Source: Pyrinomonadaceae bacterium (GTDB lineage: Bacteria; Acidobacteriota; Blastocatellia; Pyrinomonadales; Pyrinomonadaceae). From it: a stretch of 64,000 nt of DNA. Below, in pieces: positions 17,644-23,435 of the stretch; positions within the stretch are counted from its first letter, which is position 1, and each line of letters opens with the position of its first letter. The translations under genes and the position numbers were made by a program. The stretch lies in assembly GCA_037720205.1 (NCBI GenBank), contig JBBJMG010000015.1, positions 9,853 to 73,852 on the forward strand, read 5' to 3'. The notes below the pieces were generated by a model. It was given only the letters and a program-made list of their open reading frames with translations, had not been told where the DNA came from and did no database searches.

Positions 17644-18039
17644 ATGAGTTTAGAGGCTCTCGGAATGGTGGAAACCAAGGGATTTGTGGGCGCGGTCGAG
17701 GCTGCGGACGCAATGGTGAAGGCCGCAAACGTTAAGCTGATCGGAAAAGAGTATATTGGGGCCGGGTACGTTACCGTATTCGTTCGCGGAGACGTCGGAG
17801 CCGTGAAAGCCGCAACAGATGCTGGCGCCGCGGCCGCTCGCAGGGTCGGCGAACTGATAAGCGTCCATGTCATCCCGCGTCCGCACGGCGAGGTGGAGCG
17901 CGTGTTGCCCCGGGGTGGCGCGGTCGGCCTGAGTCCTGACGAGAAGGCTCTGGAGGGTGGGGGCCGCCAGCTCGGAGCGGGAGCTGCGGATACGTCTATC
18001 GACGTTACACCCACGAGCCGAACCCGGAACAAAGCCTAG
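17644..18039 (+). CDS. BMC-H (Pfam00936-type) microcompartment shell protein with ~40-aa C-terminal extension
   Basis: [56 protein letters not shown]...VHVIPRPH is canonical PduA/EutM/CcmK-like. Confidence 0.9.
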
Positions 18040-18142: not shown

Positions 18143-19882
18143 ATGGGTGGCGACAAGGACCTGATCGGGCAGGAGGAAGCCCGCAACGCGGTTGAGGCCG
18201 CGTCGCTCGCATTTAAGGCTGTCTCCATCATGGGCCAGGCTCGGATCGATGCGATCTGTGAGGCTATGTCCGCTATAGCTCTTGCCAACGCGGAAAGTCT
18301 CGGTCGGATGGCGTGTGAGGAAACCGGTTTTGGGCGAGCCGAGGATAAACGCGAAAAGAACCGCTTCGCCGCCGTGGATGTCTGGAATTATTTCCGAGAT
18401 CTGAAGACGGTGGGTGTTGTCCGCGAAAGCAAGAGCGTCGTGGAAATCGCCAGTCCGCGGGGCGTAGTCGCCGCGATCATCCCCTCGACAAATCCTACCT
18501 CCACAGCTATCTACAAGATCATAATTGCGATCAAGTCTCGGAATACGATCGTTCTATCTCCGCATCCCTCGGCCGCAAGATGTATAGCGGAGACCGTCCG
18601 GATCATGCGTCAAGAGGGTGAGAAAGCGGGCCTTCCGGCAGACTCAATCATCTGCCTAACTACACCCACGATAGACGGCACCGAGACACTGATGAAGCAT
18701 CGCAAGACTGCCGTCATCCTCGCTACGGGCGGTATAGGGTTGGTACGGGCGGCGTATTCGTCGGGAAAGCCGGCCTTCGGTGTCGGGCCGGGAAATGTGC
18801 CGGTTTTTATCGAACGTACCGCGAATATCGAAAAAGCCGTGGCGGATATTTTGACGAGCACCTGTTTTGACAACGGGACGATCTGCGCCTCAGAGCAGTC
18901 CGTCGTGGTGGATCGTACGGTCGAATCACAGGTTCGAGATCAGTTCACGCTACAGGGCGGCCACTTCTTGGACGAGGCCGAGTCGGCCGCGGTCGGCAAG
19001 ATTCTGTTGACGCCGCAACGTACTTTGAATGCCGCCATCGTAGGGAAATCCGCAGCCTTCATTGCGAATCTTGCGGGCGTGCAAGTCCCCGACGGCACAC
19101 GATGCTTGCTCGCGGATTGTGCCGGCGTGGGGCGCGATTTTCCCTGGTCGATTGAAAAGCTCTCGCCTACCCTCGCGTTTTTTGTAGCTGACGGCATCGC
19201 AGCCGCGGCGGCCAGGTGTCAGGAAATTTTGCGATTTGGCGGCATGGGGCACACTGCGGGCATGCATACACAGGATCGAGGCGCGGCAATCGAGTATGGC
19301 CAGGCAATGCCGGTCGCCCGTGTAATCATTAATTCACCCACGACACACGGAGCCATTGGTTTCTCGACCGATCTCACGCCGTCAATGACTCTGGGTTGTG
19401 GATCGTGGGGCGGTAACGTAACCTCTGACAACATCTCGCCGATGCATCTGATGGATATCAAACGTGTCGCCTTTGAGACGAAACCGGTCAATGCCCCAGT
19501 CGCCAAGCCAAACGCGGAGATCCCATTGGGTCAAGGGAATAGGCCAAAACCGAATCGTGACGAAATCGCAGCGATCGTCGATAGTTTTCTTAGTAAAAAA
19601 CTGGCTGGAGCCCACCCGCCCGCGCCGGCGATAGTCAAACCGGACGTTCCGGCCGAACCGCTGCTCCAGCCGTCGGCGGCCGTCACAACCGTTGTCCACC
19701 CCATCACTCCGGAGAATTCCGCCCAAAAGCCAGTCCCAATCGCAACGGTCGACTTTGTGAGCGAGGACGACGTACGCCAAGCTATCGAAAAAGGCGAGAA
19801 AATTTACATCTCCAAGAAGACGATCCTTACGCCGTCCGCTCGTGATCTGGGCGACGAGAAATCCGTATTTGCCGTGATTTGA
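18143..19882 (+). CDS. CoA-acylating aldehyde dehydrogenase (EutE/PduP-like) with ~130-aa C-terminal extension
   Basis: [15 protein letters not shown] catalytic-Cys motif and overall EutE/PduP-like sequence. Pro-rich linkers, an amphipathic helix and a terminal module follow the catalytic domain. Confidence 0.85.
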
Positions 19883-19886
19883 AAGA

Positions 19887-20246
19887 ATGCCCGAGGCGAT
19901 TGCACAACAACTGGCGTGCGCAGCGTGCGCGGCCGAGGTCCGGGCGGGCACGGTCTTCTGCTATAACTGCGGTGCAAGCCTTATCGGGAGTAGGCCCGAC
20001 GGACCGCACGAGTCCGTCTCTGAACCCGAATTGGCAATTCCTTTGTCCAAGGTCGAACGCGACTCGACCGGCGGACGAAGGACGAAGGCGGCTACGGAAC
20101 GAAAGATATCGCGGGGAACTCCCCGCATGGCGAAAGAATTTAAATGGGAGCCGGTCGAAGATTCGTCCTGGTCCACAATTTTAATTTCTGTCGTGATTTT
20201 TGCGATTTCCGCTACCGTTGTGATGCTCGTGGTCATCTGGCGATAG
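19887..20246 (+). CDS. Zinc-ribbon protein with C-terminal transmembrane anchor (unknown function)
   Basis: CAAC-x10-CYNC zinc ribbon at the N-terminus and a hydrophobic C-terminal helix (WSTILISVVIFAISATVVMLVVIW). Starts 4 nt after the AldDH stop. Confidence 0.6.
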   Translation: MPEAIAQQLACAACAAEVRAGTVFCYNCGASLIGSRPDGPHESVSEPELAIPLSKVERDSTGGRRTKAATERKISRGTPRMAKEFKWEPVEDSSWSTILISVVIFAISATVVMLVVIWR

Positions 20247-20308: not shown

Positions 20309-20629
20309 ATGAATGCACTCGGTATGGTGGAATGTTTTGGCCTTGTCGCAATGATCGAGGCCGCCGATGCGATGGTTAAATCGGCAAACGTTCAATTGGT
20401 CGGCTACGAACGCATCGATGCGGGGCTAGTCACAGCTATCGTCCGAGGCGAGGTTGGGGCCGTGAAAGCCGCCGTGGATGCAGGCGCCGCGGCCGGCCGC
20501 CGCGTCGGTACGGTTGTCGGCACGCACGTCATTCCCCGCCCGCACGATGAAGTCGACGATGCGATTGAGGTGCTTAGGACGGGTAAAACCACTCGCAAGA
20601 AGATCTCCGGCAGCGTTCCGGAAAAATAG
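20309..20629 (+). CDS. BMC-H microcompartment shell protein (second paralogue) with basic C-terminal tail
   Basis: [56 protein letters not shown]...HVIPRPH. Ends [14 protein letters not shown]. Confidence 0.9.
20585..20623 (+). repeat. Copy A of the 39-nt segment encoding [13 protein letters not shown] (3' end of the second BMC-H gene)
   Basis: Hand alignment with 21176..21214: 34 of 39 nt identical. All 5 differences are synonymous (AAG/AAA, TCC/TCA, AGC/TCC, GTT/GTC). Confidence 0.9.
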
Positions 20630-20638
20630 GAGAGATTT

Positions 20639-21220
20639 ATGCGCAAGCTCAGTGTGCTGCTTTTTGTGATCGGCTCTGCGTCGATGCTCGTCGGCCAGGT
20701 TTCCTCGACCGATTTGGATGCGTCGAGCAGGGAGCTGAAGAAGCGGCTTCTCGGTGACGGTAAAAACATTTTTGCAGTAAAAATTACGGGCTGCCGGGTT
20801 TCGATCAAATCAAATCTCACGAGTTCGACCCAGGACCTGCAACGGGGCGATACGTCGAGCGTGGGACGGGTTATTCCGCCGGATGGCATGTCCGGATTTT
20901 TCTCGGCAGGACCGGATCGCCCTGCAAAGCCGACGATGTACAGCCGTTACGAGATCAATTTCTCCAAACTTGATGCGGGTAAGGTAAGAACGACGCCCGC
21001 CCGCAAGGGAACGGCCCGGCTTGCCATTGTCGATGATCCGAGCGGAGTCATCACAGCAATTACTTCAAACGAAATGCAGGTAAAGTTTTATCCTACGGAG
21101 TATCCGATCATCGTGAACGCGAAAAACGCGGACCGAGTAACGGCTGCGATCCGAAGTTTTGCCAATGCTTGCCATAAAACCACTCGCAAAAAGATCTCAG
21201 GCTCCGTCCCGGAAAACTAA
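20639..21220 (+). CDS. Hypothetical protein with signal-peptide-like N-terminus, last gene of the BMC operon
   Basis: AGGAGA RBS, 9-nt gap after the shell gene. N-terminus MRKLSVLLFVIGSASMLVGQ. No family recognised. Ends [14 protein letters not shown]. Confidence 0.6.
   Translation: MRKLSVLLFVIGSASMLVGQVSSTDLDASSRELKKRLLGDGKNIFAVKITGCRVSIKSNLTSSTQDLQRGDTSSVGRVIPPDGMSGFFSAGPDRPAKPTMYSRYEINFSKLDAGKVRTTPARKGTARLAIVDDPSGVITAITSNEMQVKFYPTEYPIIVNAKNADRVTAAIRSFANACHKTTRKKISGSVPEN
21176..21214 (+). repeat. Copy B of the 39-nt segment encoding [13 protein letters not shown] (3' end of the hypothetical gene)
   Basis: See copy A. The peptide is identical, the DNA diverges only at synonymous positions. 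Confidence 0.9.
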
Positions 21221-21258
21221 TCTCGACGTGCGAAACTCGTAAAGGCGTGCAAAACGAG

Positions 21259-21290
21259 AAAGCCGGCAGTCCGAGGAGGACGCCGGCTTT
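21259..21290. terminator. Hairpin between the convergent BMC operon and VWA genes
   Basis: 9-bp stem (aaagccggc / gccggcttt), 14-nt loop. T-rich tract on the minus strand, weaker on the plus strand. Confidence 0.4.
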
Positions 21291-21306
21291 GCTAATTTGT
21301 GAATGA

Positions 21307-22389
21307 TTACGGCTTACGCGGCGTCGGAACAGGCGATGGCTTCTGAGGTGTGGGAGCCTTTCCTTCGGCCGTTCTCCCTGCCCGCGCGACTGCGATCCGC
21401 TTTTCCTTGTTAGGCCCGTCATCGACCTGGACTTTAATCGTCCGGTAACTTCCGTCAGTTCGGTCATTCGACGGTACATAACCGATGGAGTATTGCGTTC
21501 TCAACTCGCTTGAAATTTCCCGAGCCAAGTTGGGAAGCTCGGCGCCACTCTTTGGAAAGTAGGCCTTCCCGCCCGAATCGGCGGCGATCTTCTCTAAAAA
21601 CGCTTTTGCTTTGGCCTGCGGACTCTTGCTGATAAAACCGCCTTCCTTGCTTAGATCGTCCACGAATCCAATAACGTAAATCTGGACTTCCGACTCGCTC
21701 AGCAGCTCAGATAGCTGTTTCTCGTTGTAGTAGCTATTACGGTCCTCACCATCGCTAACCAAAATGAGGGCGCGACGCTTTCCCGATTCAGATTTCTTGC
21801 CTCGCTCGTAGTCGTCAACGTTTTCGACGGCAAGGTAAAGAGCGTCGATTACAGCAGTCTGGCCGCCCTCGATATACAAATTGTCGAGAGCGTCAATCAA
21901 ATCCGTCTTGTTGTTCGTGAACGGCTGCTCGATCTCGATCTTGTCACGTCCGACAAAACGGATTATCAACGTTTCATCCTCAGCTTTATTCAAGTTCACC
22001 AGCACCTTACCGGCCTCGACGACCTTATCGAGTTGCTGTCGCATCGAACCGGAATTATCAATCACAAGGCCATAATTCGTCGGGACTTCGGATTTGTCAA
22101 AGAAATCAATCTGCTGGACTACACCATCCTCATAAATCTTAAACTCGCGCTGCTGGATGTTATTTATCGGACGGCCATTACGATCTAAAACGCGGACGTT
22201 CAAGTTGACCAACTCGGCGTCTACCTTGATTACCTCATCATCCACTATCGGCGTGGGAGCCACCGTGGGCGTCGGCCGCACCAGAGGTGGCGAGGGCGAC
22301 GCGGACTGTGCTACTAGAAGCGGAGTTGCTGTGGCAATCAATACCGCCGTCATCAGAATTGCAAAAATTCTATTCATGTGTGTGGCCAT
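21307..22389 (-). CDS. Secreted von Willebrand factor A (VWA) domain protein
   Basis: Signal peptide, Pro-rich linker, MIDAS motif IDNSGSM, VWA fold signature (LILVSDGEDRNS). Resembles the acidobacterial VWFA-related family (from memory). Confidence 0.8.
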   Translation of the reverse strand: MATHMNRIFAILMTAVLIATATPLLVAQSASPSPPLVRPTPTVAPTPIVDDEVIKVDAELVNLNVRVLDRNGRPINNIQQREFKIYEDGVVQQIDFFDKSEVPTNYGLVIDNSGSMRQQLDKVVEAGKVLVNLNKAEDETLIIRFVGRDKIEIEQPFTNNKTDLIDALDNLYIEGGQTAVIDALYLAVENVDDYERGKKSESGKRRALILVSDGEDRNSYYNEKQLSELLSESEVQIYVIGFVDDLSKEGGFISKSPQAKAKAFLEKIAADSGGKAYFPKSGAELPNLAREISSELRTQYSIGYVPSNDRTDGSYRTIKVQVDDGPNKEKRIAVARAGRTAEGKAPTPQKPSPVPTPRKP

Positions 22390-22397
22390 GGCGTGTG

Positions 22398-23435
22398 TCA
22401 GCGAAAAAGTGGATTCGGCGTCGCGTAATAGCCCTCACGAGCTCGGACGGTTAGACGCGGTAACCCGCGAGGAGGTTTTATCTTAGTTTTTACCTTTCGC
22501 CATTTACCGTCAATCTTAAAATCCTTGGGCGTATAGCCAATTGAATATTGATGTCGGAGCTCCAGGGCGATCCGCTCAAAAATCTCATCCATCTCAATAT
22601 CCGTCTGCGGATAGAATGATTTGCCGCCCGAGACCGAGCTAAGTTCGTCGAGGAAGGCCTGGCCCTGCATACCGTTGGCACTTGCCGAGTCGCCGCGGTC
22701 CATAATGCCTACCGAGTAGGTTACGACATCCGACTCCTTCATAATGCGGCGAACTTCGCCGAAATTATATCGTGAAGCATTATCTTGCCCGTCACTGATC
22801 ACGAGCATGGCCCGCTTTTGATGGGTACCGCGCGTGACTCGCTCGACTCCCAGGTAGACTGCGTCATAAAGGGCCGTATTATTTTTCGGCTGAACCAACG
22901 TAAGCTTCCTCAAAATCGCCTCGCCGTCGCGCGTCCGATCCATAAGCAATTGAGCTCGGTTGTTGAAGGCAATCAGAAAGTACTCATCCGAGGGATGACT
23001 CGTGTTGATAAACCGTTCAAGAGCCTTCTTAGCCTTTCTAATTTTCTCTCCGTTCATTGAACCAGAGACATCGAATAGTATTCCTACCGAAACCGGTGCG
23101 TCGGCGTCGCTAAAATACGATATCTCCTGCTCGACCCCGTTATCAAAAACTGTGAATGCATTCTTATTCAGCCCGGACACATATCGGCCGTACGGGTCCG
23201 TGACCGTGAGCGTTAGCGTGACAAGATCAGTCTTTATCCGCAACGGCCCTTCGTCGTCTGGCGACGGGACCGGTGTCGGGGTGGCCTCCTGTGCCGCGGC
23301 CGCGACGACGGCCATGAATACGAACAACGATGCTACCGCGAAACGATTCAGCATAAGTAAGAAACCGAAACGAGTCGCTGACAAAGAAACCATTATTAAC
23401 CCCTTATATCCACTTTTCTGCTTCCCAAGGCACAA
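22398..23435 (-). CDS. Secreted VWA domain protein (tandem paralogue)
   Basis: MIDAS FDVSGSM, LVISDGQDNAS. Same architecture as its neighbour. The true start may be an internal Met (MVSLSATRF...). Confidence 0.8.
   Translation of the reverse strand: MCLGKQKSGYKGLIMVSLSATRFGFLLMLNRFAVASLFVFMAVVAAAAQEATPTPVPSPDDEGPLRIKTDLVTLTLTVTDPYGRYVSGLNKNAFTVFDNGVEQEISYFSDADAPVSVGILFDVSGSMNGEKIRKAKKALERFINTSHPSDEYFLIAFNNRAQLLMDRTRDGEAILRKLTLVQPKNNTALYDAVYLGVERVTRGTHQKRAMLVISDGQDNASRYNFGEVRRIMKESDVVTYSVGIMDRGDSASANGMQGQAFLDELSSVSGGKSFYPQTDIEMDEIFERIALELRHQYSIGYTPKDFKIDGKWRKVKTKIKPPRGLPRLTVRAREGYYATPNPLFR

Follow-up and report, generated by a model that had tools for sequence, protein, structure and literature searches.

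We analysed a 64-kb stretch of DNA from a metagenome-assembled genome (MAG) of a member of the Pyrinomonadaceae (hereafter the window; all positions are numbered within it). In this window the same 13-residue peptide forms the C-terminal tail of two proteins: BMC-H2, which is a bacterial microcompartment (BMC) shell hexamer protein, and the 193-residue product of the next open reading frame (ORF), here called ORF193. We favour, with a probability of about 0.55, the explanation that the tail is a hallmark C-terminal extension of BMC-H2 and that the copy on ORF193 is a lineage-specific graft, slightly likelier to be a tolerated by-product than a second tag.

The tail is encoded at positions 20585-20623 in BMC-H2 (copy T1) and at positions 21176-21214 in ORF193 (copy T2). 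The two copies lie 591 nt apart and are identical in 13 of 13 residues. Their DNA differs at 5 of 39 nt (AAG/AAA, TCC/TCA, AGC/TCC with two bases changed, and GTT/GTC), all without effect on the peptide, and the longest run of identical bases is 14. The codon that follows the tail is AAA (Lys) in T1 and AAC (Asn) in T2, and the stop codons are TAG and TAA, respectively. Similarity at the DNA level is confined to 45 nt, with unlike flanks on both sides, and BLASTP of BMC-H2 against ORF193 aligned the 13 tail residues only. A six-frame fuzzy search of the window revealed no tail copy besides T1 and T2. The peptide match is not due to chance. The original prediction for this DNA, made from the letters and their translations, had described a shared tail with five synonymous differences on two proteins that are unrelated upstream of it, and this description was borne out in full.

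A conserved tail on the shell protein BMC-H2

BMC-H2 scored 103.1 bits against PF00936 (cut-off 24.5) over residues 3-78, and in the PDB it matched PduA, EutM and the BMC-H protein of Haliangium (HO BMC-H) at E=1e-29 to 1e-32. Solved BMC-H structures align to its residues 1-93 only. The best 120 homologues of BMC-H2 are 82-91% identical to it and mostly 104-110 aa long, and nearly all of them carry the tail, which starts with TG[EK] and is followed by 0-2 residues. In an alignment of 48 homologues, K97, K98, I99, G101 and V103 were invariant and T94, R96, S100, S102 and P104 were conserved in at least 90% of sequences, a degree of conservation equal to that of the BMC fold.

A degenerate DNA pattern of the tail, scanned over one genome per species, gave at least 120 matches. 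Among the 120 matches listed, the pattern follows a BMC-H domain in 117, in acidobacterial genomes. One further match (L082) is cut at the edge of its block so that its context is uncheckable, and two were rejected as chance matches encoding Trp or Cys in place of Ser. Apart from these two, the tail-bearing matches are all acidobacterial (Acidobacteriota, Blastocatellia, Pyrinomonadaceae), one record being titled only 'bacterium'. Every synonymous codon is in use among the BMC-H2 tails of 119 loci. The second Ser is encoded by TCN in 104 loci and by AGY in 11, and the one-step intermediates Thr (ACC) and Cys (TGC) also occur. Given that the residues are conserved while their codons are synonymously scrambled, the tail, judged from these sequences, is clearly a functional module, a strongly selected C-terminal extension of this one paralogue.

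The tail has four basic residues and one acidic residue, contains Gly and Pro, and includes Ile and Val as its only hydrophobic residues. Encapsulation peptides, the short terminal peptides that recur on unrelated proteins of BMC loci, are described as amphipathic helices of about 15-20 residues on cargo proteins, joined by a flexible linker (PMC8217296, as excerpted here). Although the tail is likewise a short terminal peptide on unrelated proteins of one locus, it differs in that it sits on a shell protein, has two hydrophobic residues together with Gly and Pro, is shared in one genome only, and has a second carrier with a predicted signal peptide. The tail thus lacks the features of an encapsulation peptide, and in calling this basic, Gly/Ser/Pro-rich peptide unlike one the original prediction was right. 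A hydrophobic-moment calculation on the tail did not discriminate.

C-terminal extensions occur on other shell proteins of the BMC-H family, such as the C-terminal helices of CcmK1/2 and the extension of PduK. HO BMC-H (5djb / 6ner) has, like BMC-H2, a short tail of its own (LGRTPG...) after the PF00936 fold, and its tandem fusion (6ner), the closest solved relative, aligns to BMC-H2 as far as residue 93. In sequence, however, the BMC-H2 tail has no counterpart in solved BMC-H chains, being basic, rich in Gly, Ser and Pro, and as conserved as the fold itself. Unlike the known extensions it is also restricted to one paralogue of one satellite locus, which is described below.

In solved shells both termini of BMC-H proteins lie on the concave, cytosol-facing side, and by analogy the tail of BMC-H2 should be exposed outside the compartment. 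From how strictly it is conserved, from its basic, flexible make-up and from the orientation known for BMC-H proteins, the tail may be a short linear motif that docks a partner or an anionic surface at the shell exterior. An AlphaFold2 (AF2) model of BMC-H2 was discarded as a source for the conformation of the tail; built on a shallow alignment, it had a predicted local distance difference test score (pLDDT) of 52.6 and a wrong, all-helical topology.

The second copy of the tail on ORF193

The family of ORF193 came to light only when 1.84 billion cluster representatives were scanned exhaustively with HMMER; it comprises 25 distant relatives (P0122-P0146; 23-40% identity, mostly about 170-190 aa). 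Word-indexed protein searches with ORF193 or with the family profile returned almost nothing, the ORF193 query matching only itself. In the family alignment (A1), all 25 relatives end 0-5 residues past Cys178 and lack the tail. Nine related loci that bear the ORF likewise contained no second tail and no decayed copy scoring above shuffled controls. With as many as 4 substitutions tolerated over 12 residues, a fuzzy search in six frames found exactly one tail per 8-kb genome block in 119 of 120 blocks; block L001 is cut inside its single tail copy at the block edge. Two metagenome pattern scans, one for Cys plus tail and one for the tail without a preceding G-initial codon, gave 0 matches, a weak negative as they had no positive control.

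By these comparisons the second tail is specific to the lineage of the window, and the graft is a derived, one-off gene end. That the graft is derived follows from the absence of the tail in relatives, whereas a short life of the graft does not. Synonymous sites are saturated between the window and every relative (proportion of synonymous differences, pS, 0.55-0.86), so that the persistence time of the graft is not readable from the relatives. A shell protein and a cargo or accessory protein sharing a tag had been proposed as a form of BMC organisation, with co-occurrence of both tails in orthologous loci set beforehand as the test. The single tail per block and the tailless relatives of ORF193 speak against this proposal.

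The N-terminus of ORF193 reads MRK, then LSVLLFVIGSASMLVG, then Q, and its Kyte-Doolittle 11-residue mean reaches 2.45. Residues 1-19 form a predicted signal peptide that is followed by Gln20, which, like Cys52 and Cys178, is near-invariant in the family alignment. Nearly all full-length members share this layout of a K/R-containing start, a hydrophobic core of 12-15 residues and A/G-Q. ORF193 is thus probably exported by way of a Sec-type signal peptide, which makes it implausible as cargo. The earlier assignment of the second carrier as a putative cargo protein does not agree with this predicted signal peptide and the two conserved cysteines. An AF2 model of ORF193 (pLDDT 83) consists of an alpha/beta domain with a long C-terminal helix, for which a fold search against the PDB yielded no hit of E below 0.06, the TM scores being 0.25 at most.

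The predicted signal peptides of ORF193 (20639-20700) and of the two VWA-domain proteins encoded convergently downstream (22300-22389 and 23300-23435, both on the minus strand) end in A/G-Q (LVGQ, LVAQ, AAAQ). These ends resemble the 'Q-rule' described for secreted proteins of Bacteroidetes, whose N-terminal Gln is converted to pyroglutamate by cyclisation.

The ORF193 family members examined are all located between BMC-H2 and the convergent VWA gene (related loci L047, L014, L094, L107, L121-L124, L127 and L128); L125 is also among the loci listed for the family. The spacer between the BMC-H2 stop and the ATG is exactly 9 nt in five of nine ORF-bearing loci (the window, L124, L107, L094 and L128). 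From this spacer, together with a GGAG that overlaps the BMC-H2 stop, we infer that ORF193 is translationally coupled to BMC-H2. The two genes also appear to be co-transcribed. Between them there is no clear terminator, the terminator-like matches being weak and no more numerous than in shuffled sequence.

The base composition of ORF193 (GC 0.53; GC at third codon positions 0.61) is unremarkable compared with its neighbours. Its family diverges fast, while BMC-H2 holds the high identity given above. ORF193 is intact, and 4 of about 10 relatives are disrupted, with frameshifted or truncated members in L014, L094, L127 and L128. In 75 of the 83 related loci where this region is visible, the VWA gene follows less than 250 nt after the BMC-H2 stop, with no gene in that slot. 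The empty slot in these loci, unrelated insertions in others and the four disrupted members indicate that the ORF193 family gene is dispensable.

In related loci the short slot that separates BMC-H2 from the VWA gene is a hot spot for insertions. Read from their translations, the inserts include an IS200/RAYT-like transposase (L118), a pair resembling toxin-antitoxin genes (L085), a cyclic-nucleotide-binding membrane protein (L008), a beta-barrel-like protein (L066) and larger inserts (L071).

Age of the graft and competing explanations

Between T1 and T2, pS is 0.31 from three simple synonymous changes, to which a two-step switch between Ser codon families is added. Compared pairwise, 75 orthologous tails with an identical peptide are on average 8.65 of 36 nt apart, and 8.6% of the pairs differ at five or fewer positions. 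T1 and T2 are nearly as diverged as tails from different genera. They have in common a rare Lys first codon (Lys is found there in 5 of 119 loci), and their first 14 nt are identical. In simulations, five random nucleotide differences left the peptide intact with a probability of 5e-4 to 1.1e-3, depending on the assumed transition bias. As five peptide-preserving differences are improbable by chance, the peptide was under purifying selection while T1 and T2 diverged. The original prediction had read the pattern in the same way, and not as a recent DNA duplication, and on this point it holds.

We infer that the constraint behind these synonymous-only differences is certain for the BMC-H2 copy, whereas it may or may not have acted on the copy in ORF193. 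The proposal that the tail is a functional module accordingly stands for BMC-H2, on the conservation among 48 homologues and the scrambled codons; for ORF193 the evidence points both ways. The chances are close to even that the copy on ORF193 is a tolerated by-product that inherited its synonymous-only divergence, and we regard its maintenance by selection as possible but doubtful. Our lean to a by-product comes from the predicted export of the carrier, away from the shell, and from the lack of the tail in every relative of ORF193.

In the explanation we favour, the codon next to that of Cys178 is now followed by the final 45 nt of a BMC-H2 gene, which comprise the 13 codons of the tail, one further codon and the stop. 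The graft could have arisen by microhomology-mediated rearrangement with its junction at AAAACC. Related ORFs have K/T-rich ends, e.g. ...SGSVKTH* and ...CKTTK*, and the ORF of L127, which ends in ...TCTGGATCCGTAAAAACCCACTAA, has AAAACC as its K-T codons. The synonymous-only differences between T1 and T2 would stem from constraint on the peptide during divergence. Transformation studies with Acinetobacter, Pseudomonas stutzeri and pneumococcus have brought to light chimeric gene ends that result from microhomology-mediated or homology-facilitated illegitimate recombination. The graft is like these in that a short segment is joined at a microhomology beside a conserved anchor gene, giving an in-frame C-terminal replacement; it is unlike them in that the mechanism is deduced here from the DNA, without a donor or an intermediate.

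Several points weigh against a by-product. Had T2 been neutral for as long as T1 and T2 have been separate, about 8 non-synonymous changes would be expected by our estimate, and 0 are seen (P of about 3e-4 to 1e-3). Thus the ORF193 copy either is constrained at the protein level or was fused recently, after a time as a BMC-H2 tail. For the scar to be neutral, something further therefore has to be assumed, namely that T2 was for long the tail of a BMC-H2, be it a paralogue or that of a related donor, or that the BMC-H2 allele was replaced. No second BMC-H2 paralogue was found in any of about 130 loci, and for allelic replacement the crossover would have to fall to the right of the tail, where sequence conservation is poor. 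Moreover, that ORF193 is so tightly coupled to BMC-H2 in translation hints at a link in function, and the export of ORF193 is deduced from features of its sequence alone.

A recent fusion could have followed one of three routes. BMC-H2-ORF DNA of a related lineage may have entered a genome with the order tail, terminator, VWA and joined there at AAAACC. A deletion may have occurred between the ORF and a downstream BMC-H2 paralogue that is now lost. Or a young local copy may have been followed by allelic replacement of BMC-H2.

Only tentatively do we entertain the alternative that the tail is a portable functional tag under purifying selection on both proteins, serving in docking, partner recognition, modification or degradation, on which ORF193 now depends. 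One rearrangement and ordinary constraint would be enough, a ratio of non-synonymous to synonymous rates (omega) of about 0.2 or less sufficing by our estimate. Such constraint would fit five differences that all preserve the peptide, and a copy that is old, being almost as diverged from T1 as intergenus tails are from each other, yet intact. The intact reading frame of ORF193, set beside four disrupted members among about ten relatives, and its apparent coupling to BMC-H2 point the same way. A portable tag is, however, hard to reconcile with its absence from all 25 family representatives and from the ORF193 relatives of the related loci, or with the lack of any other carrier protein among the 120 listed genome matches and in the two metagenome scans. 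The family carrying it evolves fast and is often lost. Predicted export would also place ORF193 in a different compartment from the shell tail, so that a common partner is hard to picture. The more specific proposal of a recognition motif selected on two coupled proteins, for example as a handle read in the cytosol before shell assembly or export, we consider somewhat unlikely.

Also unlikely, and more so, is a neutral chimeric scar, in which a single recombination fused the ORF with the 3' end of another BMC-H2 copy. The two tails would then be orthologous or paralogous tails of BMC-H2, and their differences would be synonymous with no need for selection on ORF193. The join might have been made by homology-facilitated illegitimate recombination, with BMC-H2/AldDH (aldehyde dehydrogenase) as the anchor and AAAACC as the junction, or by a deletion reaching to a since-lost paralogue. 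The context of T2 is that of the commonest and ancestral order (BMC-H2 tail, terminator, VWA; 75 of 83 loci), and the T1-spacer-ORF junction is like that of the ORF-bearing relatives. The insertions after BMC-H2 (a transposase, a toxin-antitoxin pair and others) and the K-T codons at the ends of related ORFs, which offer microhomology, would have favoured such an event, and the codons at the differing sites, both Ser families and Thr intermediates among them, all have counterparts in orthologous BMC-H2 tails. Vertical inheritance is nevertheless simpler. The nearest relatives on both flanks carry the ORF, AldDH being 77% identical to that of L107, L094 and L128 and VWA1 80.6% identical to that of L128, so that ORF193 looks vertically inherited and the graft looks in-lineage, not like a mismatch of flanks; the two flanks agree on their nearest relatives, though all of these are synonymously saturated. 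A second BMC-H2 is present in none of the loci, and a shared rare Lys codon and 14 identical initial nt are somewhat unexpected from two lineages. None of about 130 loci offers an alignable counterpart to the 3' end of ORF193 or to the sequence downstream of T2, and with unalignable intergenic DNA, flank homology gives no signal as to which tail is the resident one.

An artefact, whether from chimeric assembly of the metagenome or from a repeated element between genes that was read as part of both ORFs, is extremely improbable even though the source is a MAG and the arrangement occurs in no second genome, as an independent Logan assembly of run SRR28324394 has the same 193-aa product on a contig identical to the window, 14 or fewer consecutive shared bases without flanking similarity leave no k-mer path for a misjoin, and the element is coding, at the BMC-H2 C-terminus, in more than 100 species and never intergenic. 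The tail is most suitably classed as a new C-terminal extension, specific to its clade, of a BMC-H protein in the satellite locus described below, plus a one-off chimeric gene end.

The locus and its microcompartment type

The genes of the locus are ordered as follows: a helix-turn-helix regulator (minus strand), BMC-H1, AldDH, a Zn-ribbon protein, BMC-H2, ORF193 and two convergent VWA genes (Table 1). No further BMC-H genes besides BMC-H1 and BMC-H2 were found within the window.

Table 1. Positions of the features of the locus within the window.
Feature	Position	Strand	Evidence or remark
BMC-H1, 131-aa shell hexamer protein, first gene of the satellite operon	17644..18039	+	Pfam PF00936, E=4e-29
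Aldehyde dehydrogenase (AldDH), 579 aa	18143..19882	+	Pfam PF00171, E=4e-25
Zn-ribbon protein, 119 aa, predicted C-terminal transmembrane helix (tail-anchored)	19887..20246	+	Weak Zn-ribbon Pfam matches
BMC-H2, 106-aa shell hexamer protein with conserved tail	20309..20629	+	PF00936, E=8e-30
Tail copy 1 (T1)	20585..20629	+	Native BMC-H2 C-terminus; conserved across the clade with codons synonymously scrambled
Spacer from BMC-H2 stop to ORF193 ATG, 9 nt (GAGAGATTT)	20630..20638	+	Shine-Dalgarno-like GGAG overlaps the BMC-H2 stop
ORF193, 193 aa, uncharacterised family of about 180 aa	20639..21220	+	25 distant homologues, hydrophobicity profile, AF2 model
Tail copy 2 (T2)	21176..21220	+	Grafted two residues past conserved Cys178 of ORF193; not in other family members or related loci
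Hairpin, GC-rich, stem of about 13 bp, A-run before and U-run after	21259..21290		RNA fold
VWA-domain protein, 360 aa, convergent, conserved right-hand neighbour of BMC-H2	21307..22389	-	VWA Pfam domains on orthologues

The cores of BMC-H1 and BMC-H2 are 67% identical. BMC-H1 has a Gly/Ala-rich C-terminal extension of about 50 aa (residues 82-131; 17887-18039) that ends in ...TSRTRNKA; both BMC-H paralogues of the locus are thus tailed, and their tails are mutually unrelated. Nearly all related loci that extend over the AldDH position have a gene there to which AldDH is 62-78% identical. AldDH extends about 130 aa at the C-terminus past the Pfam Aldedh match; by eye, this extension includes a helix-like segment resembling an encapsulation peptide (residues 472-487; 19556-19603) and a compact terminal module with no Pfam hit (residues 534-579; 19742-19879).

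In the Zn-ribbon protein, a CxxC...CxxC zinc ribbon at the N-terminus is followed by a hypervariable middle part, a basic patch and, at the C-terminus, a transmembrane helix. Orthologues at the same position in 67 loci share the CxxC...CxxC motif, the basic juxtamembrane patch and the hydrophobic C-terminus. The presence of a membrane protein within the satellite operon suggests that the compartment may be tethered to the membrane. The sequence TERKISRGTP in this protein was considered as a third tail and rejected as a generic basic patch, [RK][RK]I[ST] occurring in 3 of 68 aligned orthologues.

Downstream of ORF193, the region 21215-21310 folds with -32.6 kcal/mol (z=-3.2; 0 of 200 shuffles as stable). 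The hairpin within it (Table 1) probably serves the convergent ORF193 and VWA genes as a bidirectional terminator; a consensus terminator scan missed it, probably because the U-tract is too short for the rule of the scan.

The ACI type of microcompartment is found only in Acidobacteria, mainly in subdivisions 4 and 6, and has as its stated hallmark an AldDH that is always on a satellite locus, while its main locus encodes a class II aldolase with an encapsulation peptide, a hydroxyacid dehydrogenase and a BMC-P triplet (PMC8217296, Sutter et al. 2021, as excerpted here). The window has an acidobacterial host and an AldDH together with shell genes on a satellite locus, and it is like the ACI satellite locus of these excerpts in its subdivision 4 lineage, its combination of AldDH with BMC-H genes and the lack of a detected BMC-P. 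With BMC-H, AldDH, Zn-ribbon and BMC-H genes together in a MAG of the Pyrinomonadaceae, the locus is, on this account of the type, the AldDH satellite locus of the Acidobacteria-specific ACI microcompartment. The ACI main locus was not evident within the window, and a literature search found no experimental work on ACI compartments.

Tail sharing does not hold as a general principle of BMC organisation. Even if the copy on ORF193 is a scar, the locus has three features that the same excerpts of the catalogue (PMC8217296) do not mention for ACI satellite loci: the conserved basic BMC-H tail, the tail-anchored Zn-ribbon membrane protein and the facultative, coupled signal-peptide family represented by ORF193. 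These are concrete targets for first experiments on ACI microcompartments. If the graft is under selection, it would be a natural tail-swap, which would reveal a short handle, transferable and sequence-specific, on the outer side of an uncharacterised microcompartment of soil bacteria and would point to a partner to look for. A recognition motif borne by both the shell and a signal-peptide protein, if true, would link the microcompartment of Acidobacteria to the cell envelope.

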